Positions 1-64,000 of a stretch of 64,000 bases of DNA are shown here, one piece after another. Source of the stretch: Bilabrum cf. latius (taxonomy: Eukaryota); NCBI GenBank assembly GCA_965178125.1, contig OZ237743.1, forward strand, positions 806,001-870,000. The letters run 5' to 3'. Both the position numbers and the translations under genes were made by a program. Every line of letters begins with the position of its first letter. Within the stretch, counting starts at the first letter, position 1. The notes beneath the pieces were generated by a model. The model had not been told where the DNA came from. It was given only the letters and a program-made list of their open reading frames with translations, and did not search any database.

Positions 1-1
1 G

Positions 2-2083
2 GCCATCACTCGAAGCGTATGCATCCTGCCGAGGCCAGTCAGAGACTTCGCTGCAACGCACAGCTGGCCCTACTTGCATTATGTGAGCTATGATGCCATG
101 GGCGAACTGTACGCACTGGTCCCGTTTGCAGTGTTGATCGCTGCATCGAGCTGCCTATCTCTCGTGTTGACGGACGACCCCCTGAGTCGATTCGCGCCCC
201 CAGTCTGGTGCGACCACCTGTCTGTCATGCCGTACATCGCATGCATACTACCAGTGCTGGGCCATGTCATCGTGGCGCGACCATGGGACTGGATGCTGAG
301 TCAGCTGGTGGACGACCGCGGCTGCGTGCTGAACTTTGGGGATGAGAGGTCGAGCGTAGTAGCGTACATGGCAGGCGGCGAGTGGTTGTCAGTGAAGTCT
401 CGATGGCTATACACGGGCGAAGTGGAGCAAGGGCACAATGACGGTGTGCCTCGTGTGTACTCGCGCTTCGGGGAGTCTGCTCGGACCGGCTTGATCGCAG
501 TCGCCTGCCTCATTTTAGTTTCGCTTTTTGACATCCTCTTTGTCCTGGCCGATCAGTATGGATGCTTTGACGTGGAAACACTGTAGAGTATCACAAGCAT
601 GCAATACAAGGTGGTGAGCAAGTTTACAGTCGCTGTTGTATTCTGCGTGTTTTTGTAGAGGCGCGTCGGCAAGACTCTCTAGGTTCGTCTCTACGACATA
701 CCCCTAGCCAATGCGAGCTCGCGCAGTGCTGATGTTTGGCGCTGGTGCGAGCGGTAGGTCTCAATCGTGTATGCATTCGGTACGGACATTTTGACTCAGG
801 GACACTTTGCCGCCGGTTTATTGGAACTGCCCATTTAGGCTTGCTTTTTAGAAACGAATGCAAATACGGTCATGCAGACCGTTTTCATGTGGTTGATTGT
901 CTACTATGTCCTCGTGCTGTGCTCTGCTTGGATGCACCCGATTAATCTCTCCCCCAAGAGAACAAGTAGGCCTCCAATAGGACTCATATCAGGTAGTTGG
1001 GCTCATCAAGAGGCGAGACAGATTGTGGACAAGGCTGCAGCAGGCTCTCACAGCATAAACGGAGTCCATTGCCAACGTAAAACACGGTTTACATGCCAGC
1101 GCCCCGACAACGACATATACCTTGTCTAGCAGGGTGTTGCTGCGTCTATCGGGCGCATGCAGTTGCTGCGAGCCACCCGGCTCTAGGCGATGGTGGCAAG
1201 TGCTGGCCGGGCTCTGGTGCAGGCCGCAAGCGCAGCGGCAGTGCCTCTTTCCGACATATCGAACGCTGCAAACTTGGCGTTCAATTCTGTTGGTGCGAGC
1301 CAATCGGACGTTTGCTCGTTGAGTCGGCAGTTTGAGCTGTCGTTGTTTTGGCAAGCAGAGCACCGGAGACTCTCCAGATAGGCCGCTAGTTCCGATCGAC
1401 CGCTGACAGCGGACGAGAGGGACATTTTGCGCACCTGCGACCGTCCAATGTCCGACAAACTCATTTCCTATAGAGCGATACAGACGCAGCGTGCAGTATA
1501 CTGGCTGTGGGACCATTGCAGGGGTCACGAATAGGCACCCTATCTTGGCAGTGCTGGAGAGGCGTCGAGCGAAGACATGGTCGACCGAGCTGCTGATCTC
1601 TTGCTCGGCATGGTGACTTTGCTTGATTGCGAAATCAGGCGGAGGGCACCCACACGCGTGTATGCAGGTGCTTTGACAAGCGAGGCATCAGCGCAGGCCC
1701 TGTCCAGTCCAAGCGGAGACAACAGTGTGACGCAGCGTGCCGCTCGGAAGCGCGCCGCGCTGGCCCACGCCTTGCGCTGCATCCCTCGATCGAAGCTCCT
1801 CCTGCTCGAGGCTGTGGACAACCAGGACAGCCTGAGCAGCATGCTGCAGCTGTGGACCCGGACTGTATCTGACAAGGAGATCGGGCCTCTCGGGCTACGA
1901 GACGTCGAGGTGGCGAGCCCGCAGGTGCATGTGCTCCGTAAGCTGTACAGCAGGGCAGTGAGCGCTGCTTGCTAGAGGATTACGCGCGAAGGTGATGAAA
2001 TGGAGCGACATGCTGAGGAGGAGCTGGCGCCAGAAGCGAAGGGTGGGAGTGGTGCGGCGGCGGCAGCGGGCGGCGTGGCGTGA
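2..2083 (+). CDS. Hypothetical multi-pass membrane protein, 5'-truncated by the window edge (TAG read as Gln)
   Basis: Frame +2 is open from position 2 to TGA at 2081-2083 except for 10 TAGs (584, 656, 680, 755, 836, 1127, 1184, 1379, 1532, 1973). This joins track ORFs 74-586, 872-1129, 1190-1381 and 1577-1975. Several hydrophobic segments; no recognised domain. Confidence 0.7.
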
Positions 2084-2455
2084 GTCATTGCACGTTTGTT
2101 GCGGCTTGTGGACTTCATTTGGCACCAAGACAGGCTGCCATCAATAGTTGTGTCGATATGTTTGGGTTTAGTTGGTTGATCCTAGTCCGTGCAGCACACC
2201 ACTGCCAGGCCATCAAGAAGCGCACGAGTGCGTGCGGTTTCGTTGCTTACTATTTGGTGTCGCTGCTATGCTCCACGCCACGGAACCCCGATTGGAGCGA
2301 GGTCCATGAGTCCTGGGGGCTGTATTCTCGCGCTCGGGCCACACTGGCAGCTCCGATCGGATTGAACTCGAGGCAGTGAGGCACGTACCCAGATGACGAG
2401 GCAACCTCCACCTGGAGATTCCCAATTTGAAATCGACAAGTTAATTTAGGTCTGC

Positions 2456-4145: not shown

Positions 4146-4299
4146 TGCAGGTGGCGATTAAGTGTTTGAGAGGGGCTTGTTTATTGCGCTGGAGGGTCAC
4201 GCGACGCGATTTTGAACGAAGCAGTGAAGAAACGTGTATTTTGAGCCGTAAACCACACTGACGAATGGTGGAGCGCACGCGACAACTTCACCTGATACT

Positions 4300-6758: not shown

Positions 6759-9700
6759 TCACCGCGCTCGGAGGACAACCCTCATAGCAATAGACTCGTT
6801 TGGGACGTGGACCACACCATGCCCAAACCTTACCACGTGTGCATGCCAGTCCGAGGCCAGGTCGATGAGCGACGGTGCTCGCTGCAGAGCGGGACCCGCA
6901 GTCCGAACAGGGGTGCTTGAGCCGTTTGGCGCACCACCATCTCTCTCAGCGGTGCCCCCTTTATCAGTTTCTCTGGCACCACTCGCTTTGCTATCGCCTG
7001 CTGCTGCGCCATCCTGCCCCGATTGCTCACTCGATTCTGCACCTGGGCCGTTCTCAGTCCCTGGCTGTTCTGCCGGTTCCGCATCGCTATTAGCAGCAGA
7101 AGCAGCAGCATTGGATCTTCGGTTCATCAAAGCGTTCAGTTCGCTCGCCCTCAGATCCATGAGCTGCTCTAAAGCACGCCTGCCAAGCGGCCCGGACGCA
7201 AGGGCGGGCCACAGCCTCGGCTTGAGACCCACAACTATGCACGACACGACGGCTGGAATGCCTCCGAGGCTCTCTTCAGCATTGCCAGGGGCCTCCGTAC
7301 TCTGCACATCGCTACCATTGAATTTTCTGGCGCCATTGCCTTCGTCACCACCCTCATCAGCTGCATCACTATCGCTAGATCCATCACCCCTGCTGCCGCC
7401 TGCACTAGGCGTAGTCTCCTCTGCATCGGCCGATGCACCTCCCGCCCACGGGTTGTGCGATCCACCCAGCCAGTGCACCGCGCTATCTAGGCGGCTCTGT
7501 TCCCATGCAGGACCCGCGGCGCACATGGCGGCAGCACGCAGCAAAACAGCTCCTGCATCATCCACCGCAGTGACTTCGCTGCACTCCAGCACTAGCACCT
7601 CGACAGATTGCCTGGCTGCACCGACCCGCGCAACAGATACATTCGGTTCTGCATCAGTGCCAACTCCCGGTGATCCACCACCGGGCCGACTCGATTCTGC
7701 AGGTCCTGCGAAGGCACCATCCGCCTGGACCTTCTCTTCGCTGCCAAACGCGCCATTTTTGCTTGCGACACCGCGCTTTGTGCTACGTGCTGAACAGTGC
7801 GACCTCAGCTTGTGCAGCACCTGGCTCGCCTCCTTGAAACCAACCACGCCTCGCAGCTTAATGAAGAGCACGCCAGCGAGCGCTGCACGACTTGACTAGG
7901 CACTTGCAGGGCCACCAAGCAGCGCTACCGGCAACGATGACCCGCTGTTGCTCGTACCTGCCTCCGCTGCTTGTAGTTGCTTTCTCTCCATCTACTGCCT
8001 CCATGCCGCGCCACCCAATGAGGCCATAACGCTGCCCTGCGACTGATACCCACAGCAAGTTGCCACCCAATGCACAACGAATCCTAGAATGGCGCCGGGC
8101 ACAAGACCCACCATCACGCACGCGATGCAGGTGATCCAAATCACCCAAGCGCTCGCCCAATCGTCCTTGCTGGCATGCACCTATCTCTTCACGACCAGCC
8201 AATCCAGCACCAAATGTAATCCAACGTAGGCCAAAAGCCCCCCCATGACCGGGATAGGCACCCAGCGCATCAGCGGGCGTGCAAACAGCAAGATACCGGT
8301 CAGGCCTGCAGCAGCCGACAACCCCACAAGCCGAGTGCTGCCCCCGGCCTGCACCGCGAAGGCACTCAGCGCAAACTCGAGCAGGCCAGGCGGACCACCC
8401 ACCGCTGCCGCCGCTGCGCAGGAGGCACCAGCTGCCTCCAGCTCAGTGTCAAATACCTTGAGAGCCCGGTCGATGCTTCTGACCTGTGCACGCGCCAAGG
8501 CACCGTCCTCTTTGGTGGAGATCTTAAGCCCCTGCCTCAGGCCGTCAAATGACCCGCTGTTGCGCGAGGACACACCGCCCGATCCAGAGCCTAGCAGGTG
8601 CCTGTGCGCGAATGCTTCGAAGCACGCTCGATTTAGTCCACATATGCCGCAGCAGCTGCAACAAATCGTGTCTAGGCAGCCATTGCAGACTGCGCTTTGG
8701 CCCATCGCGGCGGCACTGTGCGTGCCGTTGGGTGCATCACTTGCCGGAATCCCACTCCCTTTTCCTAGTCTGTCCTACCGCCCGCTGCCATCCCTCCTCG
8801 TTTTCCTTCGAGTGCCGTACATGGAGCCGCTGCTCCCTGCCGTGGTACTGCAGGCCTGTGTTGGTGGAGCCGCAACCCCTCTCAGCTCACGACTGGATAC
8901 CCACCTCGGTGCACGGCGACTTTCTGCCCCTGCCCCTGCACCCGCGCTTGCACCTCCAGGCCCTCGCACAGCTCCACTAACCTGATCGAGCCCTGCATTA
9001 TCGCCACCTGCGACATCTCGCTTGCGCAAGCTACCGCCCGAGCTTGACCGAAGGGAAGGCCGGACCAGCAGAGGCTTCCGCTCCTGCATACGAAGCTGGA
9101 GCTTGTCCCCGCCCGCTCTATCACCGAGCTACGTACCCCCGCAAGGCATGCCACAGCAGTAGAGCACGCTGCCGTCTTCGCATGCCTGGCCGCCATTTGC
9201 ATCCTTCTTGCTGTTGTAGCTGCCATCTGAATCCCAGCCCATGCAGCACCGGCAAGGGCTAGACAGCCGCACAGGGGGGTCTTCAGGAAGCGGACCCAGC
9301 CCCGCCCTCGCTCTCAGCCTGTCGACACCTGCCGTGCGAAAGGCCACGAGAAGGATCGCGAGCACGGGGGCGGCGAGCAAGATGTCAGGCAGGGCCCGCA
9401 GCAGGCCCATCTGCTCGGCCACGTTGCCCCCTAGCACGATCTGCGAGGGAGCGCTGACTGCCTCTAGCATGAACCACAGCACGTGGGGGGTCGATGTGGG
9501 CCCCTGCGGCCGCCTGGGAAGCCACACTCCTCGACCAGAGAGTGCCTGTCCCACCCCGGCCGCCTGAGACAGCGAGCTCTGGTCCTGGGTTCTGAGGGCC
9601 AGGAGCAGGAGGAGAACCCCGCAGGTGCTGGCAAGCACGGTGGCTGGCAGCACCACGGGGAACGTTCGCGAAGCTGCTTCCTGTACGTACGCCAGAAACG

Positions 9701-10376
9701 CGGCGATGGCGGCCCCGACGGCCAGCACCGGCACCATTTTGAGCTGCAGCACGGCCGATTCTCCTCCGGGTGACGGCCTGAGGCTCACCCACCGGAGTGG
9801 CCTCCAGCCAGCCGTCATCATCCCGACCGCCTCGTCCAGGATTACCAGGCCGCAGCCGGCGAGGAAGCCGGCGATGACTGTTCGCGGTACCCGGTAGAAT
9901 ATGGCGCCCTGGCCGATGCATCCCACGAGGAGGAGACAGACCGAGCAGGCAGCCGAGGCGAGCACAAACACTGCGAGCGCGACGCGCAGCCCAGGGGACG
10001 TCGAGTGACTGGCAATCGGCAGCGCGTCAAACGCCGTAGCATTCGAGGCTCTAGGGTCAAATGGCGCTGATGTCTCCAGCGTGGGGAGTTGCAGGCTGCT
10101 GGCTGCGTCAATGGCGGCCGCATGAAGCACTGCTGCCAACAATGGGTCGGGCCCTGCAATCGCTGGCGGGAGGGAGCTGCCCAATGAAGTAACCAAACAG
10201 GTCACAACAGCTGTCAATAGAAAAGCTGTTCCAAACTTTGGTACTTCGCGGCCCTCTGGGTCCAGTCCTCCAGTTGCCAGCAAGGACGCTAAGCTAGAGG
10301 AGAATGCCGCGGTCAGGAAAGCGACTAGCAGGCCAGCAACACAGTTTCTGGATATATTTGTCCAACTGAAACTCAT
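6759..10376 (-). CDS. SulP/SLC26-like anion transporter with a divergent C-terminal STAS-like domain (~1,205 aa)
   Basis: One frame joins ORFs 9129-10457, 8775-9089, 8181-8705, 7992-8180 and 6759-7871 across TAGs at 9129, 8775, 8181, 7992 and 7896; ends TGA at 6759. SulP-like motifs AIAGPD, VPRTVIAGFLAGCG and VPIPVMGGLLAYVGL; STAS-like FIKLRGVVGF and VLVLECSEVTAVDDAG. Start ATG inferred. Confidence 0.8.
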
Positions 10377-10586
10377 AATTGGTAACTTTATGACACCATA
10401 TCTCAGATTGGGCAGTGAAAATGCCGTGCACAATGTTGAGAGCCAGCCAAATCTCAACGAACGTTCTAGTGGGTTCGATTCTTGAGAGTTCCGGTTTGGC
10501 CCGGTTCAACCAAACTCTTTTTTCGTGCAGTTTTCTGGTACAGCATCGCCTGTCAGGGGTCTAGAACTTATTCATTCTCGATTGAA

Positions 10587-14614: not shown

Positions 14615-14714
14615 GGCAGCAAGGCGGCCACCGGGGACCTGTCCTCCCGGCTGGCCGGTTGCAACTGGAAATTGAAACCTGCCTCAAGCAACAACGCCGG
14701 TATTTGCGAACACC

Positions 14715-23243: not shown

Positions 23244-23415
23244 GATGCCACGACTTAGACAAAATATAACTTACTACGGTTGCTAGTAGCTCATGACCTC
23301 AAGAATAGCGACAGTATGTTGTCGTTCAACGTCTCTTACGGCCACTCATCACATGTCCACAAAGTGCAAATTGGGTCTGCGATCATTGTGAAGCCTTTAC
23401 CGAAATGTTATAACT

Positions 23416-25031: not shown

Positions 25032-25228
25032 TACATTAGTTCGCTTAGATGCCACTAGGAACTTGCCAAGGCCGAGCCTCCTGAGGTGCGCGCGCTTGCT
25101 CGGGCGGCCCCGGGCTGTGGTGGCTCAGAATCTGTGACGATACTCTCAACGTCTGAGTTTCATTCATCTGCTCGGTTGCCTGCGCTGGACAGGTGGCAGC
25201 CGTCTGAATTGTTCAGCACCAAAACATT

Positions 25229-47700: not shown

Positions 47701-50700
47701 TCTGCAGGTTTTCAGGGGCATCCAGCTCGATCACACCGGCGGGGAACTCGGGAGCCTTGAGTATGCACCCGATGCTGGTTCCGTCGAACGCAACTGCGCT
47801 GGGGCCGGTGCGCTGACACATGCGCTTCGTGCTTCCAGTGGCATCGTACCCTGCATCACACTGCAGTTCGCAAGCCCGCCCCGGCGTGAGGTCGTAGCAC
47901 ACCCTGTCCTTACTGCCGCCGCAGCTGGGGTCTACGCGGCTCACCGAGAAATCGCGGAATGCGGCCGAGGGGATAGCTCCAGACACCCACATGCCGGCGG
48001 AACCGAACCTGTAGCGTGAATCCTTGGCGGTGCACACGACCCTGTCGTTGAAGCTGCCCATCAGCATGCCGTCCTCTGTGACCTCCAGCGACAGCATGAC
48101 CCAGCTGTTGGCAGACAGGCCGGTCAGAGAGGCCTCGCCCACGCCGCCAGCTCCACCTGCGCTTGATGGCACTGGGTCTGCGCTGGAGCAGAGCGTCTAG
48201 TTGCTCCACACCCCGTTGGTGACCGTGTAGATCGCTGCGGTGCCCATATCCGCACTCACCGCGAAAATGTAGTAGCCTTGCCCTCCGCCGCTGATGCGGC
48301 TAGCGACTCCAGCCAGCTCACCTGACGGTATCCGCACCCTAGCGCCAACAGTCACTGCATCTGTGGTAGCTTGCCACGGCGAATCCGCCACAAAAACAAG
48401 CTGGATCTCCTTGGCATCTCCGCAGTCGGATGCATCGTCAAAATTGAAGCTGAGCGCGTCATCCATAGCCGCGGTGACGCCCCACCGGAATCCATTGAAT
48501 ACAGGGTAGACGCTCAAGGCTGCAAACGGGCCATCACGTCCAGCCGACAGGCTCCGCCCCGTTCGACTGGCATCCGTTGCAAAGCTCATAGCGAAGAGAT
48601 CTCGCTTGCAGCCCTCACGAAGTGCAAAGTCGTCGTCTGCCGGCGTGTCTGGGGCGGGGTCCCACTCGCATGCTGGCTCGCACACCAGGGGCGCACCGGA
48701 CCAGAAACCGCCGCCTCCGCACTGCCGATTGTACGTGCCTGTCACCCGTACGAAGCCGCTGCTGCACTCGTGCCTGCAAACGTCCCCGTTGCCGGCCGAC
48801 GAGCACGTCCCGTTGATGTACGCTGCGTTGGTGGGCGGGCTCAGGTCCTCGCAGGAACCCACGCCGTAGCGGTCGCGTAAGAAGGCGTGCACCGAGCTCA
48901 GCTCAGCATCAGTGATGGCACCCTTGAATATCCCAGCCTCAAAGAAGTTGCCTCTCAGCCGGTCGTTGCCGAAGGAGGTCCACCCGAACCTGACTCTGTC
49001 CTTCTCGAACGAATCTGTGAACCCTGTGACGGTGGAGAGCCCGCCCCCAAGTGTTCCAACCGGCAGCGGCTCGCCGTCTTTGAAAGCATCAATCTACCAT
49101 TCCAGGCTATCGTAGTCGCCGTACACGGACGAAGAAGCCGGCCGGATGCGGATCGTGAAGATGGAGGGTTGCGTAAAGTCGGTGGATTGCAGCGTGTACA
49201 GCCCCGCCCTTCGCCTGAAAGTATGGCTTGAAACACCCACGCGGACTTGCCCGTCCAGGGATCGGATGCCCCACCCCACCCTAGTGTCTGTTACATAGCC
49301 AGCGCACAAGTAGCAGGCTGACCTGCCGTCGGCTGGCTACACCACCACGTATGCCGTCAGTCCAGACCAGCCGGGACTGACCATGGGGTGCTGCATCACT
49401 TCGGCGTAGTCGTTCACGTCATCGAAGAACAGAGAATCAATGGAGTTGCGCCAGGAGTTTCGCTCAATGGTCGGCCCGCTGAACACGTTGATGTTCCTGC
49501 GGACGGCGCTCTGGTCAAATAGATGGCTGTTCACGACGAGTTCGTCGGCAGGGCTAGCGTGCACGACTAGGCCTTGTGACACGGGCAGCTTACTAGAAGC
49601 GCACACCGTCTCGCCGAAAGGCTTGTATGCAGTCACTTGCATCCAATCAACTCGGAGACCATCGTTCCAATCCGTGCCAAACCCAAAAGCACCGGGCCCC
49701 AGGGGGTAGTTGTCTACAGCCGAGATCACCTCCACCCCGTCACGGTAGACCTTGATCGTGCGCCTGTCCCTCGCGAAATCGTACCGGCTCTCTACCTTCC
49801 ACACGTGCCAGGACCGCTACACGTACGTCTGACTGGTAGTTGCGGCTATGTCAGCGAGATCAGACGTGGATCCCCTCCGCCTCTTCCGGATGGCCACACA
49901 GCGGGTCTGCGCTCCCATCTGCACGTAGTAGAAATTGTTCTAATCTTCGAAGTTGAACAGAAGCATGATTCGGTCGTCGTCGTCGTTGCGGATTCGCGCT
50001 TCGAAGTCGTAGTCGGGCCAGAACTCCCTCCCCCACGGCTCGTAGGTCGCAGAGGCGGAAAAGGCGCGCGAGCGGCAGATGCTGGTCACGTCCGTCCCTG
50101 CGGTGCCAAAGTTTGACCCGCCTGTATTCCTAGTCTGTCTCAGCTCGCCAGAAGTTACTACCCAGTTGGCCACGCCACCATTGTCAGTTCTTGCCACCGG
50201 AGACCAGCCCCTCCTCTCAGCACCACTACTGAAGTCCTAGCGCATGACCACAGTGTCGTTGCACGGCTAGCAAGGGCCCCCGCAGTCGATGAAGCGCTCG
50301 TCACCATCGAGGACACCGTTCGAGCACGAAGCAGACCGCTCCCATACGTGCAAGTTATCGAACTGCAGGTCCGTGCAGGCAGCCGTCATGAGGCCGGGCG
50401 TGTAGCTGCCTGGGATGGCGTTATAATCGGTCACGTCCACGAGGAGAGTGGTGCCGGATAGGAGCTGCAACCTGACGGCCGTGGCGTTGATTCGGTCGAA
50501 GCGAAGGTTGTGCCTAAAACTCCCACCACTCGTAGAGTACATGGCAGGGCACGGACGGACCAGCCCGCCCTCGAACTCGACGTGGTTGCCGCCGTGCACC
50601 TTGAAGATTCCGCATGCGTTCTCCTGCTCCGAGAGCACGTGGCCGTAGAAGTTGTCCTTGTCCTGAAACCACGTCATTCCCATGGCATCGTCGTCAGTGG

Positions 50701-51301
50701 TGCGCGTATCGACCTGCTGCTCGGCTCCTTCGTAGTATGTCCCCATGTGGTCGGCGATTAGGGCGGTGCCGATCGAGTTGCCCCTGGTGAAGTGGCAGTT
50801 GCCGCTGCAGCCTGGTGTACTGGTGGCACCTGAGAATCGCGTCTGGTACCAGTTAGAATTCTGCGGTGGTATCCAGACTAAAAAAGGGACCGGCGCGGAT
50901 TGCCTGCCTGCTGGAGGCCGGAAAGCACGTGAGAAATTAGAGAAACTGCGGGTAAACCGAGTGTAGAAATCAGGCTCACCTCGGTGATGATGTTCCCAGA
51001 CATTGCCCATTCCGTGACACCGCTTGTCGAAGTGACATCCTCCTGGGTGTACTAACCTGCGACGAGAAGGAGCACCAAGGGAGAACGCGCGGGGCAGACT
51101 GGATGGGTGCGCGGCCAAACCTTCCGTGCAGGAAAGTGTGCGCTCTGGCATGCGCTCGGGCTGTCACTCACCCAAATTGTCGTGGCCCCGTGGAAAATAC
51201 ACGCCAAAATCATCCATTTGCCACGACTTGCGAATAGCATAGGACTGAACCGACAGCAAAGCCACGGACACCACCGTACGGGTTACAGATTGGAACCTCA
51301 T
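38753..51301 (-). CDS. Giant (~4,104 aa) multi-domain cell-surface protein: signal peptide, ConA/LamG-like sandwiches, sushi, cadherin repeats, many IPT/TIG repeats, Cys-rich region, multi-pass C-terminal TM domain
   Basis: Exons 51301-51172, 51056-50980, 50860-38753 give 4,105 codons with 16 internal TAGs and no TAA/TGA until TGA at 38753. Signal MRFQSVTRTVVSVALLSVQSYA; sushi CRHECSSGF..C..GFWSGAPLVC; cadherin PEN..LDFE..DSNDPP and NVNEPP; IPT units T.GG....I.G.NFG; TM region with GTDYFQV and W.FVLLARK. Confidence 0.85.
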
Positions 51302-51741: not shown

Positions 51742-54321
51742 ATGAAGAGATATAGATTGCTGAGCAAGAAAGGTATGATGCGTTTCCATCCACGAACTGG
51801 CAGTATTCGTGAATTCTTGGTATATCCGTTTCGCTGCGTTCTGTGTGACTGAGATCTAACTCTTGCAGGCGAAGGCACATTCAGCGAGGTCTTAAAGGCC
51901 CAGAGTATCAAAACCGGACGATATGGTGAGCGAGACTTGCTTTGGGTCTCGATTTAAGTAGCGCTCACTGCATCACGCGCCCAACGATTGCCTTGCGACT
52001 GTTTTGTCCCCCCGCAGTTGCTGTAAAATGCATGAAGGCAAAATTCACGTCCTTAGAATAGGTCAACAACCTGCGAGAAATTTAGGCCCTCAGAAGGCTT
52101 TCTCCGCATCCAAACGTCGGTAAGACTTGACAATCATAGTTGAATCTGAATGCAACGAGCTTGCTGCCTTTCAATCTGAACAATAGGACTCATCATACTC
52201 CTTAAATTTGCAGTTGGGTTAATCGAAGTGCTGTTTGATAAGACGGGCGGGCGGCTTGCGCTGGTTTTCGAGCTCATGTCTCTGAATTTGTACGAGCTGA
52301 TTCGGGGCCGACGGCGCCACCTCGCAAGCGGTCTCGTGAAAGTGTACATGTTCCAGACCCTGCGGGCCCTCGCTCATATGCATGAAAAAGGCGTCATGCA
52401 CCGCGACATCAAGCCGGAGAACGTCCTCGTAGAGTCGAGCTACGACGTGTACAGCGGGCTGAAGCTGGCAGATTTCGGCAGCTGCAGGGGCATCTACTCC
52501 CGGCAGCCGTACACCGAATACATATCCACGCGATGGTACCGTGCCCCCGAGTGCCTCCTGACGGACGGCTACTATGGACGGGAAATGGACGTGTGGGGCG
52601 TGGGCTCAGTGTTCTACGAGCTCTGCGCCCTGAGGCCCCTGTTCCCAGGTGAGAACGAGAAGGACATGGTCAGGAGGATCCATGAGGTGCTGGGCACTCC
52701 AACCGACAAGACCCTTCAGTTCCTAAAGAGGCACGCCTCGAGGCACATGGACCTAAACTTTGCCCCGGTGAGGGGGAAAGGCCTCGCCAGCATGATCCCG
52801 GGGCACGTCCCCGTGCAGATGGTGGACCTTCTTCTCAAGATGCTCCAGTATGACCCACGCCGGAGGATCACTGCCAAGGAGGCGCTCATGCATCCATACT
52901 TCGCGGACCTGAGGCGCACGGAGGTGCCAGCGGAGCTGAAGAGCAAGTATCCACAGGCCTTTGATTCGCCGGAGGTGCAGCCCGCGAGCGCGCAGAGCAG
53001 CAAGCGGGGGACCAGCGGCAAGAAGGCCAGCGGCGGGGGGAGCAAGTCGGGCGCTGCGGCCTCCAGCACTGCCACAGTGGAGGGCAAGGAAAGCGAGTCG
53101 AGCAAAAAGCGCGGCGCCGATCCCAGCAGCGGAACCAAACACCATAGCCACACGTCCTCTACGACCTCTAGCGGCTCCGGCACGGGGTCTACCCACCACG
53201 GATCCACGACGGCGCAGAAATAGAAGCTCGAGGAGCAGGCCAGGCGACGTGCCAAGGCGGCTTCGGACAAGCTTGCCAGAGATCTCGCGCGTGCAGAAGC
53301 AGCGAAAGCCGCCAAGGCAGCGAAGGAAGCGGACGAAGCCGTGGCCGCAGTGGCCGCCGCGGTCAAGCCGAAGCACTCGTCACACGTATTGGAAGAAGAG
53401 GGAGTCGATTCCGGGTCCCCGAACGACCGGAAGAAGCGCTCGAAGCGCCTGTACGACGGCAAAGGGACAGTCCAGCCCCAGACCCTCAAGTCAACTGGGC
53501 AGACCTCTCTGTTTGCAGCGGCGCGGGCCAGGCGCGGCTCCGTGGGGGACGCTGACGAGGTCGTGGACGAGGTGAACGATGGAGGGGGGAGGCAGGGCTC
53601 AGACAAGCATGGCGGTGGAGGGCACGGTGCATCGCACGGTGGTGCGACCCACGGGCAGCAGTTCGGAAGGTCGCACCACCACCAGTCAGCCGCTCGCATG
53701 GGAGCTGTGGGTGGCCAGCAGCCCGCCGTCACGCGAAGGCCCAGGGGTCTGCGACGAAGGTTCGGCCCGGGTTCGTCGGGAGCTGGCGGGACGGGGACTT
53801 CAGTGGGAGGGGCGGGTGGCGGCGTGACGGGCGCGAGCGTGGCGCTGTCGCCGTCCACTACCCGCACTGTGGCCGGCGGCTCCTCGCTGAGGCACGGGGC
53901 CCACGGTGCTGGGCAGCTGTCCAGCTCCACGTCGAGGATAGCCCAGGGGGCTCGTCCCCTGTATGGGGTGGGTGCCACGGGGGCGGCACCCGGGGCCTCC
54001 GGTACGGCAGGCATGTCGGTGATGGGGTCTGGCGGTGCCGGGGGAGGCGCGAGCTCGGGTCTGAGGTCAGGGGCAGGCGCAGCGCGGCGCGCGGTGGGTA
54101 GGCCTTATCTCGGCGGTGGGGCTGGAGGCGGGGTGAGCGGATATGGTGGAGGCTCTACCGCTGCCAGGAGAGCCGCGAGGTATGGCGGCGGGGGTGCGGT
54201 GAGTGCGGCGAGGCGCAGGCAGGGGGGTGTCACCGGCGGCGGCTACGGGGCATCTTCCGGTGGTGGTTTCTCGTACGGGGGTGCTGGCAGGGCCGCTGGG
54301 GCGGGCTGGAGAAGGCGATGA
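51742..54321 (+). CDS. MOK: MOK/RAGE (LF4-like) serine/threonine kinase with a long Gly/Ser/Arg-rich tail
   Basis: Exons 51742-51772, 51869-51925, 52018-52119, 52214-54321 give MKRYRLLSKKGEGTFSEVLKA..VAVKCMK..SLE(TAG)VNNLREI(TAG)ALRRLSPHPN, HRDIKPEN, DFGSCRGIYSRQPYTEYISTRWYRAPECLLTDGYY. Third TAG at 53221; ends TGA. Confidence 0.95.
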
Positions 54322-54532: not shown

Positions 54533-57500
54533 ATGGCTCGCCACTAGTAGGGCCCAGCTATTGCGCCTGGGGGTCCCCCTAGGAACGGAATGCGGCAGGC
54601 CTCTTCGGTTAGCTCAATGCAACGAAGTTCATCCTTCTTTGGTGCGGATAGTACGTACAAGCCAGACTGTGGCACGGAATCGTACTAGTATTTGAGCACA
54701 GAGCGTGTAAGTGGTTCCAAGCTGCCCGAACACAAGCAATGTAGCACTACGGCCGACCAAATTGAACGAAACCGCAAAAGGTGTGTTGTTCTGCAATTCG
54801 CAGGCCAAGGAATACGTGGACAGGACGCACCCGCGCGTGCAGGCTAGTTTCAATTTAGATGGAACGGTACGGTCTTACGAGTATTGGGAGTTTTGCGGCG
54901 TAAGTGCGGTTGCTATGTGACAGTGCGTTGACTGGAGCTGGAGCCGGTGCTCTCGCTAGCCGCGTCGCCCTCCTTCATTTGCTCCTCTCTATTCGTATTG
55001 CAGACTGCTACTGGGCGCCATTCATGTTGCGGTGAGTTATTGTCGCGGTAAACAGCGGGAATCACCAAAGCAAGCCTGCGATCGTGACCTGCCTGCCAAG
55101 TGGAAACTGCCAAGGCTCTTGACCAGATATACCAGCGTGCCACTTGTGCCGGCATGTGGCTTGACATCGTAAACATTTGCATTGGACTGAAATGCTCCTG
55201 TTTGCCTTGCGCTTTCTCCGCAGGCTGTAACACACCCTCCGACTGGAGCGAGGTAAGGAGACGATGTAGCCGTTCGTTTCGTCGCTTTGCAGCTTATACT
55301 TTGATATGGGCAAGCTTAGGATCAAATAATGACGATTAACACTTTCGATCGCAGTTCGGTAGCGGACTCGTGATGTATTTCAAGGGTCTCAAGGCAGTCT
55401 CGACACTGCTATTCGTGATGTCCTTGCTCAGTCTCCCCGCCCTGGTTGTGTACTACAATGGAGGGGCGCTGAACGAGCAGATCGTGTCTGAAGCAGAACG
55501 TCTTGCGCTCATCACGCTCGGCAACATCGGCGAGGGATCGACCGTGTGCACCTCGGCGCTGGAGGGGGAGAGGCTTGGCATCGCGTGCCCAGCGGGGGCC
55601 AGGATCGGCTCCATTGAGGCCTACTACGGGAATCCACAAGGGTGAGATATTAATAATAGGGCACATGGGTGCCCCGTGCATTGCTTGGGGTCCGGCACGC
55701 CTCCGGATTGAGCCACCCAGGTATCGTCCCCACCGACCTCAACCCCGAACTTGCATCACTCCGCCTAATGCCTTCCCCCTCGCAGCCAGTGCCTGTGCCC
55801 CGCGGCCCGGACTCCCGACCCCGACTGTCCAGGTAGCGTAGACGGAGACCTGTGCGAGCCTTCGAGCAACCCCGACGATGCCTACTGCCACCTGGACCAA
55901 GAGAGGGAGGTGAACCTTCCCTCGGGTTCGAAATTCGACGCAGGGCCGTGCTGTGCCGCAGAGCTAGACAGCGGGAGCCCCGTGTTCCCTGACCTCGATG
56001 TAGCGGTGGATCCGGAGTGCAATTCCCTTACGGCTCAGCGGATCGTGAGGGGCAGGTGCATCGGACAGGGCGTGTGCAACATCACCGTATCGGGGAGCGC
56101 GCTGCAGGCGTGGGTCAGCGACGAGGGCTACGGTACCGAGTGTGACCCCGACTTTGACCGCAGCAGGACTAACAGAGACGGCGTCAAGCAGTGCTTTCAG
56201 TCCTTTGATGGAGCAGCAGAGGGTGTAGCGGAGCCCCTGCAGAACTGCCCCGCTCGTGTCAGCAATCCCGCCTCTGACAATAGCGGGGCCGGCCGCAAAC
56301 GCCTCCTCGTTGTCGCCGTGTGCTACCAGACGGAAGTGGACCTTGGCAATGGCACGGTTTGGACCAAGGAGGAAGTGGCCGTGTATGTGGCCCTGTTTGA
56401 CGTCGTGTCGACAGTCATCTTTATTTTCTTTGCTTGCTGGCTGGAGAACGCCGAGCACACCGAGGAGAAGCACATCAAGTACAGCGCCAACAAGCGCTTC
56501 GGCGTGGCGGACTACACCGTGTACCTTCCCAGCCTCCCCGACCACGACTCAATCTCCCAGCTGGAGCGCGACATCCGCAGCAAGTTCGAGCACGTCCTCT
56601 CCGACGAGAACTTCAGGGTGCGCCGGCCGCTGCAGGGCGACCCCCAGAACCCCGAGGCGCCCTCAGGCGTCCGGGTGGCAGACATCAACTTCGGCACCAC
56701 AGAGTCCGGCATGCTCGATCTGTTCCTCCAGCGCGGGTCCATCCTCAACGAGCTGGACCGGGCCATCCGCAGGAGGCACATCGCAAGCATGGAGCTGGCT
56801 GACTTCCGGGGGACCGCAAGGCCGACCGTGCGCGAGAACATGGAGCAAGCAGGCAAGATGTCTTCGAACGAGGTGGCGTGCTGCAGCCGGTACATGGGCT
56901 GCTGTCCCTACGACGACGACGCTCTCCGGTTGATCGACGAGGAAATCCGCAAGATCAAGGACAAGATCAAGGACAAGGACGACGAGATCGATCAGGCCAT
57001 CGGCATGCGGCAGATGGGCGGCGAGATCATGGCAACGTGCGCCTACGTGACGTTTGAAGAGGAGGAGGGCAAGGACAGGGCGCTGGCGACGTACCCTCCC
57101 ACCTTCTGCATGTGGCTATGCCAGCCCAACTCGATGCGGATCAACGGATACCGTGTCTCGGTCGAAAACGCGCCGCAGCCGTCTGACGTGATTTGGGAGA
57201 ACCTGGGGGTGCCTACCATCGAGCGTTTCTGCAGGCAGGTGTTCACCACGACCGTCACGTTTGCTGCCCTTGCCCTTTCCGGTATCGTGCTGTTCCTGGT
57301 CGAGGATCAGAAGCGCCAGGCTCTCCGCACCTACGTCTCGACCGACTGCTCCCTTGTGGAGGACGTCGGCAACAGGGACCTGGTCGTGCAAGACACGTTC
57401 TGGAGAGATTTCAACCAGACCACCGGCAACACGGGCAGGCTGGAGTGCTACTGCCTGGACCGATTCGATATCAACGATCCTACAGCAGTCCTGGAGGAGA

Positions 57501-60500
57501 AGTTTGCGGTCCCTGATGGGAACAGTCTGACTGGTGGCACTGCCGAGCTCTGCCGGGACTGGGCCGACACCTACTTCACCGTGCAAGGCCTCGTGTACGG
57601 TGGCGCTCTGCTGGTCCTGTTCACAAACTTCCTGCTTCGTTTCCTCCTCCGCGGCCTCGTGAGCTTTGAGAGGCTTCGGTCGAGGACTGCTGAATTGGTC
57701 TCCGGTGCTCTCAAGCTCTTCGCGATTACGTTCCTGAATACTGCTGCGCTGGTGGTGCTCGTGAACGCGTCCATTGACACCGATTTCGTCTTCCTAAGGC
57801 AAGGTGAGCAACCTGAGTGCAATGGCTAGTGGGTTTTGATTTGGGCTTGCCTTGAAGTGCGAACCGTGTTTGCTCTAGTTGACCGTTCCTCCGGTTTTTC
57901 GCAGGCGAGCATGAGGATTTTGGTACTGACTGGTACCGCTCAGTGGGAGTCAGGTGAGCAGCGCTGGACGTCGTCTTCATCCGTTCATCCTTTGGTCTGT
58001 GCGGTACAACCCTCCATCGTATTATCTGCTAGTGTATTCCCCTAGAATACTCGGCATCGCAGTCTGACGATCACGATGATCCTCAATATCTTCGTCCCCC
58101 ATGCTACCCCTCTCGGCGACATGACCCTCATCAACATTGCCAGGTGCCGGGACAGGAGCTGCTCGTGCGACGAGCACCTCACTTCTACCTTGTCCCAAGC
58201 AGAACTCAACTAGCTGTGGATGGGCCCGCAGCTCCTCCTAGACGAGAGGTTTGCGCAGCTCTACTCCATCCTATTCGTCTGCTTGGCTTTCTCGACAGGC
58301 ATGCCTGGCCTGGTCCCCATTGCGTTCCTTACGTTCTTCCTGTGCTACTGGGTCGATAAGTCCCTCTTCGTGTGGGTGTACCAGACTCCTCCCAGCTACG
58401 ATAGCTCCCTGAGCCACTCGTTCACGAAGCTTCTGCCGCTGGCTGCCTTCCTGCATCTGATCATGGGCATCTGGATGCTGAGCAACCCGCTGATCCTCCC
58501 CGACAGCTAGGCCGTTCAGGACGCGTCGGCAGTCACCGCCACCGTATCGCAGGCATCCACCGTTGGTTCCGGGTCTGACACTGGCTCTACTTCGGAGGTG
58601 ATCAGTGGGGCTCTGGGAGACCTGGATGCCATCGGCTACGACGTGGCCGCCAGGCTATCGAGGTCTGCGGTAATCCCGCTGGTGATCATCCTGGTGCTCC
58701 TGGTCGCCTGGCTAGTCCTTCGCTACATCATCTACTCCAACCTGAAGCTGCTGCTCTCGTGCGTGTGCCCCTGTCTGTTCGAAGGCGACGAGTTCGACGA
58801 AGAGGACTATGGGTATGGCACGAAGGATGACACCGAGACGACCCGTATGCAGCTGCCCAACTACTGGATGGCCCTCCCCACCGAGGTGCTGCAGGAAGTG
58901 CACCACGGGCTGCGCGTGCCCAAGAGTGCCGAGGCCAGGTCCAAGATGGAGAAGGCGTACCACAAGCGGCGCAAGCTCATTGAGCAGCGATCGCAGGCCC
59001 AGGTGCAGCTGCGCCAGGCGATCGAGCAGGAGCGCAAGCACCTTGAGGAGGCCAGGCTGCGGCACAGGCAGCAAGATCAGGCAGAGCAGGTCCGCGAGAT
59101 GACTGAGGCTCAGCTGGCAGAAGAGCGCCGCAAGCGCGAAGAAGAGGAGGAGAGGTCGAGGCAGCTTGAGGCCATGCAGGCCGCGCTGGCTGCTGCGCAG
59201 GAATCCGCCAAGGTCGCAGTCCGGACCGAGAGCACTTGGCAGGATGCCGCGAGGGAGGAGATCCGGCAGTCTATGCGGATGGGCAACCAGCCCGGTGGGG
59301 TGTCTTCGGCGGCCATGGCAGCAAGAGACGCTCCTAACTACGACCACCGCCCGCAGAGCGCGTCGGACAAGGCCCTTCAAGAGATCGACAATGACGACGG
59401 CGTGGTGCACATCCCCGATGAAGAGGACGGTTACGCAGCCGGTACTGCCGCTGATTCCGCCCTTGCTTCCCCCGCCAAGGTGCACGGGGATGGCGAGGGC
59501 GAGGGCAAGGAGGAGGACGGCGCCCTCGTGGCCGCTGGTGCAAATGCAGCGGGCGTCGCCACTGGCTCCATGACTGGAGAAGGCAGCGCCGCGACGTCCG
59601 GAATGCAGCGGACGGCAACATACCTGGTCCGGCAGCAGATCGGCTACACGACGGAGGAGGCCGCCGCGATGGCTATGGAAGCGGAGCGTGCTGCTGAGGA
59701 GCAGCGTCAGCGAGCGTTCCAGCTGATCCAGTCGTACGGCTTGGACATGGACGACAAGGAGCTGAGCGGCGACTTCAAAAAGTTCACGGAGAGCATCATG
59801 AGCGGACTGCACTCGTTCGACCTGCACGACTCCATCGCTTACAGTCGGATCCTTGGATTTTCGGCCAATGTGCCGGTGCACTACAAGCGGAGGCTGGCGC
59901 TCGAGGCCACGGACGCCAGGCAGAAGCGCGCTGCTTCTTTTGCGGGCAACGGGCTGGCCAGTCCCGCCCAGGCAGATGTGGTCGGCATGACACCTGGATA
60001 CGGGATGGCCTTCAACCAGAGGATGGTACATGGCCCAGCAATCCAGGTGATCGAGCCCGGGAATATCCAGAACCAGCAGCCTAGAGGGCAGGTCCCGATC
60101 CAGTCCAGTCAGGGACAGACTCCCCAGCGGCAGATGCCGCCGCAGGCCTGGGGCTCCAACTCCCAGATGCGAGAGCAGTCTATGCGCGAGACAGAAGCGG
60201 CCCTGCAGGAATCCAGGTACTTCCAAGACGATTCCAGCGCGCCCATGCCGCAGAGGTCCATGCTGCCGCCCATGCACGGCGCGTCCTACATGCACCAGCA
60301 GTCCAACGTTGCCACCCGCGCCGACGGAGCCTACTGGGCGCATCGCCCCGAAATCATGCAGGCTGCCCAGCAGTCGCCCCAGGGGTATCCGGTGATGCCA
60401 GGCGCTGGCCAGGCTGGAGGCCAGGGGATGGCCCCCCAGTTTGCCAGAATGCAGGCCCTGCAGCAAGCTGGCTTCATCGGCCAAGCCCGTGCGGGATTCG

Positions 60501-60571
60501 GGGCAGGCGGTGGAGCAGCGATGGATATGGTGGCACCTGAGGGAGCGCCTGGCAGCGTGCCGCAGGGGTGA
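54533..60571 (+). CDS. OSCA/TMEM63 (CSC1)-like or related TMC/anoctamin-superfamily channel with an extracellular SUEL-lectin-like loop and Gln-rich tail
   Basis: Exons 54533-54706, 54804-54899, 55004-55031, 55224-55252, 55355-55641, 55786-57803, 57905-57953, 58063-60571, all phases consistent. Motifs FGSGLVMYFK, ADYTVYLPSLP, AYVTFEEE, APQPSDVIWENL, DF..DWY.SVG and SQAELN(Q)LWMGP. TAGs at 54545, 54548, 54686, 58211, 58508; ends TGA. The 5' exons are less certain. Confidence 0.8.
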
Positions 60572-60833
60572 TGCATGGGACTGCCTGAGCCCCGGGCCCG
60601 CCGCAGTGCAATGGGCCATATGTTTGGGGCGTGCTGGAGCATAGTCGTATTCCAGTGCATGTGTTTGAGTATCTTGTCTCGATTCTTTCAATACCGGTAG
60701 CCTCTTTCGTCCGGTCTGGCCATTAGACGGTGCACGCAACAACCTGCAGCAAAACCAGATCTGGTAATCATCCGAATCTATCCCGGTAGGGCAGGTACCT
60801 ACTTTTTTTGCGTCAAGCAACGATTAGAGCTTG

Positions 60834-61787
60834 ATGGCTTCATGTACTAGCAGTGGGCGAGGAGGCTCGTCGAAGGAGGAGATGCCTCTTGTATCCGACC
60901 TGCGAGACGCCGTGGGTCTTGGCTCGCTGAAGCTCTTTTTGGATTCCAATGGATACTGCGCGTTTCGAGGGCTGATCGAAAGTGAAGCCGAAGTACTAGC
61001 CCTGCGGAAAGTTTATGACGAGTTGCTTGAGACGAAAAGCGATTATAAGTGCGATCTTGGTGCGAATGAATCTAGAAAGAAGAGTGGGGTGGAAAACATT
61101 ACCCAAGTTATGTGGCCAAGCGAGTTGCGAGATGACCTTAAGCCAGATAAGAGCAAATTACACTAGCGGGCTCTTCGGCTGGCAAAGGCACTAATCGGCG
61201 ACGATGCTGAGTTCGACTTTGACATGATCATCAACAAAGTTACGGATACTGCAACCCCTTTCCATGTTGATGCAGCGTATTGGCCAGACGCGCCAGACAC
61301 ACGCGCACTCTCGTTTTGGGTTGCTTTGGACCCAGTGGATGAGGACAGAGGCTGTATGTGGTACGGGCCGAGAACGCACCTTGAGCCGCTGCGCCGGCAC
61401 CGCAGCTCTGCCTCCGGTGCTGGCGCCCTTATGTGTGACGGTAGCGAGGACGAGTGCGTGCCCGTCCCAATGGAGCCAGGGGATGTCGGGATCCACTCCG
61501 GTCGGACGCTGCACTACAGCAGGGGCAACAAGACCGGACTTCCGCGCCGAGCCTACATCATGAATTTTAGGCCGAAGGCCATGATCGAACACTTCCGGGC
61601 GTTGGGATTCGACCATGGAAAAGCCGGGGGCGCGTCCGGCAACCACGTGGTCAAATGCGAGGAAGCCGAAGGGGGTGATCCTGCAGGCGATGGGTCGGGG
61701 GGTACCGCTGGTACGACAACCGCAGCTGGTGGTGCTGAGGCGAAGACAGAAGCCGATGCATGGGCTGCCACGGGCTCTGCTTCCTGA
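60834..61787 (+). CDS. Phytanoyl-CoA dioxygenase (PhyH) family Fe(II)/2-oxoglutarate dioxygenase (~317 aa)
   Basis: ORFs 60831-61166 and 61224-61787 are joined by TAG at 61164 (KLH(Q)RALRLAKALIG). HxD motif FHVDAAYW, WVALD, GCMWY and distal His in TLHYSRGN; ends TGA. Confidence 0.9.
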
Positions 61788-62048
61788 ATACATTCATTAC
61801 TGCAGAGTGTGCCTGGGTGCACTAGGTACTGGAGCGTTTGGGGTCCATGCTGCGAGGCGCAGCTCTGCCCCAAGCTAGGTTTACTTGTTGATTGTTTGCG
61901 TGTGTTTGTGACGAGAACCGAGCAAGATTGTCTTGCAAGTTTCCCGTCGTGCACAAACCAATCTAAACGGTAGTTTGCAGACATATTTGCAACCGCATCA
62001 TGAAAATAGCAGCTGGATTCCGGAATCCAGATCGACCCACAGATTACG

Positions 62049-64000
62049 TCAAGCATCATGCCTGTAATCTACCTCCTAGAACGCATTGGGGTTGAGGAGG
62101 GCAGCCCGTGTGACGTCCCCGGCGAGCATCTCACTCTTCTGCGCCTCATTCAGCATCCACTTGAGCGCCTCGCTGTGGCGACGACTAATTGGCTGACCGC
62201 TCTGCCCCTTAGGAGTCCCCTTGCCTAGCCGCTTGGAGCGCCGAGAACCAGATTTGGACCCCGCCGAGGCCAAGCCCTGCATCTCGAGCACAGAGCGCCT
62301 CACGCTTGACTTGGCTGCCGTTCGCTTTAAGACGTTCTTAAGCAGTTCCCTAGTTTCCATGTCGTGCAGTGCATTGGCTGCACCGAGCATCCCTGTGTCT
62401 CCTGTGCCTCCCGTGCCGTCCAGAGGTTCCATGACTCTGGCCTGGCTGTCATCCAGAACGCGCAGGTGGTAGATGGCAGTCGCTCGACCAAGCGAGCCAA
62501 GCATGTCCACCAGGTGCTGAGGCCACGTCTGCTCCAACACCGTGTACACCCTGTCCATACCTTCCAGAGCGTCGAACTTCGGCTCGTCGAATTCGGTCTA
62601 CGAGACCATGCTGCCCCTGCGGTGTTGGCCGTGAAGCGTCCCAGGTGAAGGCGACCTGCGACCTGAAACCGCCGTCCCGTGTGTACGAGAGCCGGGGCGC
62701 GCGGTCCGGCTGCTCGACGCAGTACCCATGCCTCCTCGATCAGCCCCAAACGAAGCACCTCTGCCCAGGGTCCGGCCACCTCCACTCCTCGATGAACCGC
62801 GTGCATCCTGTGGTAGAACTTCGATGATGCCCTCCCGCTGCCTCTGGATGTCTTCGATCAGGCCGTTCGCAAATGCCGAGCCGTTTGCTAGCTCGCTTGA
62901 AAGCACCAATCCGCCGGTTTTCTCCGCAGCGGTGCGGCGTCGATCAGGCGGAGCATGCCTCGTGACCGTGTGCTCCACATGAGCTGCAAGACGTCGCGTG
63001 AGCTTGCTCGACATGATGGGCCCCCGCTAAGCTGGCCTTTGGCGCTGGGGACGGCTGCCCTCTGCATCGCTCTCGTCATCATCGCTTCCTTTACTTGCCT
63101 GCTCCACCTATGGACCACCCCCGAATGCACCTCTGGCCTCGTCGTCGCCCTCCGCTCGCTTCTCAATCTCCACTGCACCCACCTTGTCGCCCTACATCTG
63201 CTGCTTGACCTTCCTTCTGTGCAGCGCATTCATCTCGGCCTCTGCTTCCAGCATCTCCTCTTTCTGCTTGCGCTGTGCTTGGCATCGCTTCAAGAGCAGC
63301 ACCTCGGCGAGGGACAAACCCAGCTTCTTTGCCATCACGCCTAGCCCGGCCGTGACACTCATCTGCGAAGCGCGCATCTGGTCTGAATAGCTCACGACAC
63401 CACCGGTGGATTTAGCCTTCCCGATCCGCAGTGATTCTCCTGTCTCTACTGGTGGTTCTCGTTTGAGCCTCTGCCGCTTTGCCAGCCCACGTGGGTTAAG
63501 GCTCTGCATCTGCTTGCGCAAGGCCGTCGCGCTGCTGAATGGACCACGAGCCGCATCTTCCTTCTCTTGCTCTACCAACTGCAGCATTTCGGCCGTGGCA
63601 GGATCCCTGGGATCCATGGCGGACAAGCTGCCGTGCTTCTGCATTTCGGTCTTTCGCAGTGTTGTGCTCCTCGCGTTGGCTGCTATGGTGAGGAGCACGG
63701 GCTCGCTGGCAGATTCCAGCAGCAGGAGCCGCCGGAGCGCGGGCGCAGTCTTCCCAATCATCGAATCGACTTGATGACGACTCTCGTCCTGGACGGCCTG
63801 TCGCTGCGCCTGCATTGTGCGACGGTGCGACCCTGCTGGGATCTTGCCGTACTTAGGCAGCGGCGGGGTCGTGGGCCTTGCCTCACTCTCCGGAGGCGGG
63901 GCAACGGCATGCCCCTGCGACACGCGATCTCCAGCATGCCTTGCAGGCGCACTAGTGGTGGTTCCATCCGGGTAAAACCCAGCTGCCAAAGCCTAGGCTG
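62049..64000 (-). CDS. Hypothetical low-complexity/coiled-coil protein, 5'-truncated by the window edge
   Basis: ORFs 63192-63989, 62598-63014 and 62076-62558 share a frame joined by TAGs at 63993, 63192, 63108, 63027, 62598 and 62076; ends TGA at 62049. Confidence 0.7.

Follow-up and report, generated by a model that had tools for sequence, protein, structure and literature searches.

The stretch analysed here comprises 64,000 nucleotides (nt) of Bilabrum cf. latius (assembly GCA_965178125.1, contig OZ237743.1, positions 806,001 to 870,000 of the forward strand) and is called the window below. Its genes very probably follow a nuclear code in which UAG is read as glutamine, with UGA as the main terminator and UAA still a stop, which is the pattern of NCBI translation table 15, and the source is a stramenopile related to Cafeteria. 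A first-pass annotation of the window had proposed such a code from the in-frame TAG codons of its genes, and the parts of that interpretation that can be tested were supported by the analysis.

In-frame TAG codons open long reading frames

With all three stops in force, as in the standard code, no stop-to-stop frame in the window exceeded 1464 codons. When TAG was treated as a sense codon, the longest frames were 4136, 1600, 1582, 1493 and 1248 codons, and in the control in which TAA was made a sense codon the maximum was unchanged at 1464 codons. Making TGA a sense codon gave 74 frames of at least 300 codons, yet the longest frame was not extended; many frames are opened in this way, as TGA occurs more often in the window than the other stop triplets (877 TGA, 525 TAG and 223 TAA). 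Since TGA as sense inflates the sums of open reading frame (ORF) lengths even more, ORF length was rejected as a test and the continuity of homology across TAG was used instead.

The first-pass annotation had counted about 99 TAG in 20 genes, and this agrees with the first list of 20 ORFs, which holds 99 in-frame TAG and ends with TGA in 17 cases and TAA in three. A stricter set of 18 ORF-level genes contains 96 in-frame TAG in 17,869 codons, with at least one TAG in each gene. Two corrections were made to these counts: two further TAG (52059 and 52083) were located in a protein kinase exon outside the long ORF, and two of the four TAG of the ORF at 55769-60571 fall in short in-frame introns. 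The in-frame TAG codons first noticed in this DNA are confirmed as real. Of the codons taken as glutamine in the 18 genes, about 12% are UAG (96 TAG, 534 CAG and 157 CAA). The base at position +4 of the sense TAG was G in 35 cases, A in 27, C in 19 and T in 15, the next codons were diverse, and no readthrough motif was seen in the bases after the 96 TAG. Furthermore, the coding signal, measured as the GC (guanine plus cytosine) content of third minus second codon positions (GC3-GC2), was +0.109 beyond internal TAG (n=83).

The genes and TAG codons on which most of the following comparisons rely are:

51742..54321, plus strand: MOK/RAGE-type (CMGC/RCK) protein kinase gene, ending in TGA (Pfam Pkinase, E = 4.6e-45)
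51742-51770, 51867-51924, 52017-52118 and 52213-54321, plus strand: the exons of the kinase gene, taken from spliced contigs
52059..52061, plus strand: TAG in kinase exon 3, ...SLE[TAG]VNNLREI...
52083..52085, plus strand: TAG in kinase exon 3, ...NNLREI[TAG]ALRRL...
53221..53223, plus strand: TAG in the C-terminal tail of the kinase
34083..38564, minus strand: HK2, a hybrid histidine kinase (HK) gene (Pfam HisKA, HATPase_c and receiver), with 16 in-frame TAG, closing with TGA TGA
36093..36122, minus strand: three HK2 TAG (36120, 36108 and 36093) upstream of the H-box, ...AVI[TAG]ATR[TAG]RQAL[TAG]SRLRFLSHE...
29141..33889, minus strand: HK1, a hybrid histidine kinase gene and tandem paralogue of HK2 (Pfam), with 6 in-frame TAG, closing with TGA
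38753..51163, minus strand: giant gene for an IPT/TIG and cadherin membrane protein, a single frame of 4136 codons that lies between two TGA and contains 15 TAG but neither TAA nor TGA

It had been claimed that TAG occurs inside a kinase subdomain motif, and this was borne out at 52059 and 52083 in kinase exon 3. The TAG codons of HK2 are located between the HisKA, HATPase_c and receiver domains within one frame, and those of the 4136-codon protein between its cadherin and IPT/TIG domains.

TAG in spliced transcripts and other assemblies

Contigs from four further public runs, X5 (study P2) and X6, X7 and X8 (studies P3 and P4), were compared with the window over 34350-54349. This part holds 34 TAG, and the counts for each run rest only on the parts that its contigs cover. 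Contigs of X6, X7 and X8 join 51770 to 51867, 51924 to 52017 and 52118 to 52213, which is the spliced form of the kinase mRNA, and the skipped pieces are three GT..AG introns of 96, 92 and 94 nt. Run X5 has the unspliced genomic form across 52009-52426. The joined kinase exons form one open frame, and its match to the Cafeteria kinase begins at the first residue. The exon at 52017-52118 was found in the spliced X6, X7 and X8 contigs with no other letters and with both exon 3 TAG present, and exon 4 was covered, likewise with no other letters, over 52213-54203 in X6, 52213-54077 in X7 and 52213-52903 in X8. The TAG at 53221 was unchanged in X5, X6 and X7. Altogether, 25 of the 34 TAG were exactly matched in X6, 17 in X7, 9 in X8 and 11 in X5, and a single X6 contig of 2600 nt contains 12 of the 16 HK2 TAG with no other letters.

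At the kinase TAG sites UAG was thus kept in the spliced contigs of three runs from two studies and no CAG was found, in line with the earlier expectation that UAG is retained in mRNA. Because these contigs keep TAG unchanged, base-calling error, UAG-to-CAG editing and hidden introns are removed as explanations for the covered sites. The source had also been described as an intron-containing, GC-rich genome, which fits the three confirmed introns of 92-96 nt and a GC content of 56-62% throughout the 64-kb window (about 59% is used for comparison with Cafeteria below).

Besides the exact sequence, X6-X8 contain a second copy of 39435-41653 in the giant gene, 90-95% identical, which belongs to a paralogue or a related strain. 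Among the 40 listed differences of this copy (310 more lie beyond those listed), 30 are at third codon positions, and this excess fits purifying selection on the coding frame. Runs X1-X8, which belong to four studies and bear four different organism labels, contain near-identical sequence, so that the flagellate may be carried along in other cultures as a contaminant or a co-cultured species.

Relatives in metagenomes and databases

A scan of Joint Genome Institute (JGI) metagenomes with the C-terminal half of HK2 as the query gave eight loci, of which L001-L006 were used and L007 and L008 were weak (33-38% identity). The same kind of scan with the giant protein found no relative. Loci L001-L006 have a GC content of 0.53-0.57 and are 31-37% identical to the query overall and 43-50% in the best segment. 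In frames without TAA or TGA, eight in-frame TAG were counted in L002 (1182 codons), eight in L003, five in L006, two in L001 and six in the 344-codon frame L005b. The 463-codon frame L005a has no TAG, and a frameshift in L004 produces frames of 284 and 778 codons with three TAG each, the first of which ends with TGA at the shift. One TAG is shared, as the HK1 TAG at 33242 lies in the same alignment column as a TAG of L005b. Judged from their frames, the environmental relatives share the trait of in-frame TAG, and since L001-L006 were assembled independently, they argue against an artefact. As for the organization of this family, HK1 and HK2 stand in tandem, each with a long multi-pass N-terminal region and with a nearly identical core block, and a tandem arrangement is also found on the metagenome contig of locus L005.

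Database proteins point in the same direction. The gene at the start of the window is:

2..2083, plus strand: gene of unknown family, open at the window start, with 10 in-frame TAG and a TGA stop

Its ORF (2-2080) has only two relatives among 1.84 billion representatives. One of the two, P0184, is an ORF of 80 amino acids from another assembly (61% identity) that ends directly before the window TAG at residue 376, as standard-code gene calling gives if that relative also has TAG there. Similarly, P0001, a kinase sequence from another assembly that is 99% identical to the window in the kinase domain, starts inside kinase exon 4. Both P0001 and P0184 look like fragments from standard-code gene calling.

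The amino acid encoded by UAG

Of the 120 kinase homologues found, the 98 that have the motif were scored and the 22 without it were left out. The column of the TAG at 52059 is glutamine (Q) in 96 of the 98 sequences and that of the TAG at 52083 in all 98, and P0001 has Q opposite the TAG at 53221. For the three HK2 TAG upstream of the H-box, alignment columns 888 and 893, which correspond to the second and third TAG, are Q in five of the five other family sequences. At the positions of the six TAG of L005b, HK1, which is its closest homologue with 34% identity, carries three Q, one TAG, one E and one A. A likelihood was also calculated for each amino acid from substitution frequencies of the same alignments over 21 TAG columns, and Q came first (-55.4), ahead of K (-58.9) and R (-59.2). 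The claim that UAG aligns with glutamine where a column is conserved was upheld by the kinase columns, HK2 columns 888 and 893, P0001 and the HK1-L005b comparison.

Most TAG are found at variable columns, which is explained if new TAG codons are expected mainly at tolerant sites. The homologues of the giant protein, including a Cafeteria roenbergensis protein, are 26-31% identical and variable at the TAG columns. The alignment of the paralogues HK1 and HK2 by itself is not decisive because most of their TAG lie in poorly aligned parts, and no PDB match was obtained for the OSCA-like gene. The glutamine call is drawn from about a dozen comparisons together with a strong prior that a change from UAG to Gln needs one anticodon change. 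On these alignments UAG most likely means glutamine.

UAA and UGA as terminators

To avoid circularity, frames bounded by TGA alone were analysed, which gave 15 genes with 17,231 codons. These genes carry 95 TAG along their full length, and each of their nine TAA is located either within codons 1-64 or no earlier than the gene-closing codon. In nine of the 15 genes (11,713 codons) there are 56 TAG, and TAA is absent. The CAA/CAG ratio of 157/534 in the 18 genes predicts about 28 TAA for the case that TAA is a synonymous glutamine codon. The closing codon in the 18-gene set is TGA in 15 and TAA in three. The latter are:

14676..16583, plus strand: folate-receptor-like gene (Pfam Folate_rec) with 4 in-frame TAG, a TAA stop and TGA two codons on; stop context TAATTGTGA
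21198..23270, minus strand: SAM-domain gene (Pfam SAM_1) with 4 in-frame TAG and a TAA stop
23883..25031, plus strand: MTG1/YlqF-like GTPase gene (Pfam MMR_HSR1; PDB matches MTG1 and RbgA) with 5 in-frame TAG and a TAA stop

The GC3-GC2 coding signal was +0.021 after the terminal TGA (n=15) and -0.007 after the terminal TAA (n=3). Members of the histidine kinase family terminate shortly beyond the last receiver motif that they share (KPV), with TGA in HK1, TGA TGA in HK2 and TGA in P0121/L005a, and the metagenome relatives L001 and L006 have TAA soon after KPV at the homologous C-terminus. With no interior TAA in the 15 genes, stops at homologous C-termini and a coding signal that drops, the proposal that UAA and UGA both terminate translation was sustained.

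Evaluation of alternative explanations

A number of results weigh against the assignment proposed here. The glutamine call draws on few columns, about 8 Q in 11 well-aligned non-TAG comparisons. HK2 column 884, which holds the first of the three TAG, is K in two and A in three of the five relatives, and in the Cafeteria kinase the first TAG column of exon 3 is occupied by K and the second by Q. When HK1 and HK2 are compared with P0121 only, K scores slightly higher than Q (-20.2 and -20.8, respectively). In the giant protein, A, T, Q and R are not distinguished by the 10 TAG columns that were aligned, and its homologues have Q at 7.6% of the TAG columns compared with 18.4% of the CAG/CAA columns. 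In PDB alignments, A (GTPase) and T (GH28) stand opposite TAG at variable sites, and the TAG site of the PhyH-family gene is also variable and has no conserved residue. The evidence on UAA is small, consisting of 64 kb, three genes that end with TAA and two near-related metagenome loci. Genes for tRNA were found neither in the window (ARAGORN and Rfam) nor in L001-L006 (ARAGORN). Loci L001-L006 could be unsampled paralogues of the same species and not separate relatives, and UAG may keep a terminator role at gene ends. The K residues listed above, together with the variability of most TAG columns, are what would favour a sense codon for Lys, Glu, Leu, Ser, Tyr or a mixture instead of Gln. We consider this very unlikely, as the only near-invariant columns (96/98, 98/98, 5/5 and 5/5) are Q, HK1 has Q at three of the five non-TAG positions opposite the L005b TAG, P0001 has Q as well, and over the 21 columns Q is ahead of K by 3.5 natural-log units.

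A code that depends on context, in which UAG is Gln inside genes and a terminator near some mRNA 3' ends and eRF1 still recognises UAG, was also considered. Such a code would account for the clustering of TAG before the closing stop: the last 10 codons contain five TAG, compared with 0.97 expected (Poisson P = 0.003), in four of the 18 genes. The sites and the two of these genes that have not been described above are:

38765-38767, 25005-25013, 27920-27922 and 62076-62078: the five terminal-region TAG of four genes
25208..27949, plus strand: gene of unknown family with 5 in-frame TAG, the last one 9 codons before TGA
62049..63998, minus strand: gene of unknown family that runs off the window, with 6 in-frame TAG, the last one 9 codons before TGA

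In addition, the giant gene has one TAG four codons before its TGA, and the GTPase gene has TAG six and eight codons before its TAA. Every one of the 18 genes can close at TGA or TAA and none requires an end at TAG. Codes with ambiguous stop/sense codons are known, involving all three stops in Condylostoma and UAR in Blastocrithidia. However, the same clustering would arise if genes that once stopped at TAG are now translated on to the following stop, and in the available extract of Panek et al. (2017; PMC5304391) the corresponding case in Iotanema was taken as sense. No homologous C-terminus in the histidine kinase family coincides with TAG. The context-dependent code is unlikely, and it refines the reading of UAG as Gln and does not replace it.

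If UAA as well as UAG were Gln, as in table 6, and UAA were merely rare owing to high GC, the low number of TAA would be explained, since TAA occurs less often in the window than either TAG or TGA. We regard this as highly improbable: none of the approximately 28 expected interior TAA is found inside the 15 genes, three window genes and two metagenome relatives end with TAA, the relatives at the homologous C-terminus, and the coding signal stops after TAA (n=3). The chance that the in-frame TAG are artefacts of base calling or assembly, UAG-to-CAG editing, missed introns or pseudogenes is negligible. Two of the TAG first counted do fall in in-frame introns, but the TAG letters were reproduced exactly by the four further runs from three studies, three of the runs being spliced, independent JGI assemblies have the same trait, the frames are intact over thousands of codons, and the differences of the diverged giant-gene copy are concentrated at third codon positions. 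For the 34 TAG in 34350-54349 the artefact explanation is refuted as far as the contigs cover them. Mere leaky readthrough can also be rejected, because 16 UAG in one gene at 50% per site would leave about one full-length protein in 65,000.

Placement of the organism

The best named match of the kinase is the bicosoecid Cafeteria roenbergensis (72%), and other stramenopiles are at about 60-63%. A single-gene MOK tree was built from 35 chosen rows, consisting of 23 matches with a source name or label, the 11 top matches without a name, and the window. In this tree the window and P0001 are sister to Cafeteria and the JGI protein P0047 with a Shimodaira-Hasegawa-like approximate likelihood ratio test (SH-aLRT) value of 94, and a clade of six rows that includes the window and Cafeteria (SH-aLRT 100) stands apart from oomycetes and ochrophytes. 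A Cafeteria protein also occurs among the small number of homologues of the giant protein. The source is therefore a heterotrophic stramenopile that is related to Cafeteria yet distinct from it, with its finer placement thinly supported by one gene. The sequence P0004, named 'Mok, partial [Symbiodinium sp. KB8]', falls in the Cafeteria-like clade of the kinase tree and probably comes from a bicosoecid-like contaminant of the Symbiodinium assembly.

Comparison with known genetic codes

The comparisons in this section and the next draw on extracts of the cited papers. The same codon meanings, UAG as Gln with UAA and UGA as stops, have been reported for the fornicate Iotanema spirale (Metamonada) (Panek et al. 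2017, PMC5304391). TAG near coding ends before the true stop was also observed there, and the same mechanism was predicted, namely a tRNA-Gln(CUA) and an altered eRF1 (PMC5304391). Iotanema differs in belonging to an unrelated supergroup and in being known from a transcriptome, whereas the window consists of genomic DNA, has confirmed introns and a GC content of about 59%, and shows affinity to stramenopiles. Among ciliates, UAG alone is Gln in Protocruzia tuzeti and two phyllopharyngean lineages (McGowan et al. 2024, PMC11687900), which likewise have nuclear UAG, and not UAA, reassigned to Gln, although ciliates often change their code. The rhizarian exLh with UAG as Leu and Scotinosphaera with UAG as Ser (PMC5304391, PMC11687900) show the same split between UAG and UAA, with UAA and UGA as stops, but the conserved columns of the window are Gln and not Leu or Ser. 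The reading of UAR as Gln (NCBI table 6) in many ciliates, hexamitin diplomonads, some ulvophytes, Streblomastix and an aphelid (PMC11687900) is also a change from stop to Gln, presumably via a mutated tRNA-Gln, but in these codes UAA is also Gln and here it closes three genes.

Like the source of the window, the stramenopile Cafeteria roenbergensis is heterotrophic and has a GC-rich genome in which introns are few and short, and in the extract used its non-standard code is reported only for the mitochondrion (Hackl et al. 2020, PMC6972860). Its GC content is about 70%, compared with about 59% in the window, its nuclear genes were annotated conventionally, and it has K and Q at the kinase TAG sites of the window. 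We infer that the nuclear code of Cafeteria is standard. No nuclear reassignment of UAG or another stop codon in stramenopiles was found in the full-text literature searched, a scope that leaves out most subscription journals and supplements, and in the available part of a 2024 stramenopile overview (PMC11412368) code and stop-codon terms occur only in a cited paper on mitochondrial codes. The code had been called possibly unreported, and within this literature that description stood; UAG as Gln is likely to be unreported for stramenopiles. The reading of UAG alone as Gln is itself an established code variant, and what is new here is the lineage. With modest confidence, we favour the view that this is the first nuclear stop reassignment in Stramenopiles, an independent split between UAG as Gln and UAA as stop that arose after the separation from Cafeteria, is shared by a clade of environmental flagellates, and occurs in an organism that is perhaps cultured or co-cultured.

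Proposed mechanism

Because UAA is still a stop, the decoder of UAG must have the anticodon CUA, a line of reasoning set out for Iotanema by Panek et al. (PMC5304391). A dedicated and efficient tRNA-Gln with this anticodon would pair with UAG and mismatch UAA. It would most simply have originated through duplication of a tRNA-Gln(CUG) gene and a single change in the anticodon. Decoding must be efficient, since about 12% of the codons read as Gln are UAG and one gene has 16 TAG. The release factor eRF1 would be expected to have lost most of its affinity for UAG and to have kept the recognition of UAA and UGA; it was not seen in the 64-kb window, in which no search with an eRF1 sequence was made.

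Significance

UAA and UAG are nearly always reassigned together, and the nuclear splits named in the extracts are only those of Iotanema, a rhizarian, Scotinosphaera and a few ciliates (PMC11687900, PMC5304391). One more independent case, from a new lineage at the supergroup level, bears on how repeatable the tRNA-Gln(CUA) route is and on which eRF1 changes it needs, and the present case combines genomic DNA, introns, transcripts and environmental relatives, which makes it of high interest for research on code evolution. There are also practical consequences. Standard-code gene calling splits the genes of this organism at each TAG, and as long as the code is not set accordingly, annotations, BUSCO scores and metagenome binning for the clade will contain errors. 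If this is indeed the first reassignment in stramenopiles, and if the organism is available in culture, it could be tractable for studying how eRF1 discriminates UAG from UAA and whether TAG terminates at gene ends.

Other features of the window

The window is tightly filled with eukaryotic genes, which lie on both strands. Family searches also identified GH28, alpha-galactosidase and MerC-like genes in the window, several window genes are without a known family, and no Rfam family was detected in the 64 kb. The remaining genes referred to in the text or carrying in-frame TAG are:

6759..10505, minus strand: sulfate-permease-family gene with 5 in-frame TAG and a TGA stop
55769..60571, plus strand: PHM7_cyt/RSN1_7TM (OSCA/CSC1-like) gene (Pfam), with the TAG at 58211 and 58508 exonic and those at 57827 and 58043 intronic
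60768..61787, plus strand: PhyH-family dioxygenase gene (Pfam PhyH, E = 3.9e-27) with 2 in-frame TAG, one within the domain, and a TGA stop

The putative introns of the OSCA/CSC1-like gene, at about 57804-57903 and 57953-58045, are in frame, lack TAA and TGA and each contain a TAG. Their borders, predicted from DNA alone, are GTGAGC...CGCAG and GTGAGC...CCCTAG, and one of the TAG is thus the acceptor. On the 3' side of the gene at 25208-27949, from about 28050 onward, the frame reads repeating HGLHWHSRGLHWHSR, which points to a short tandem DNA repeat.

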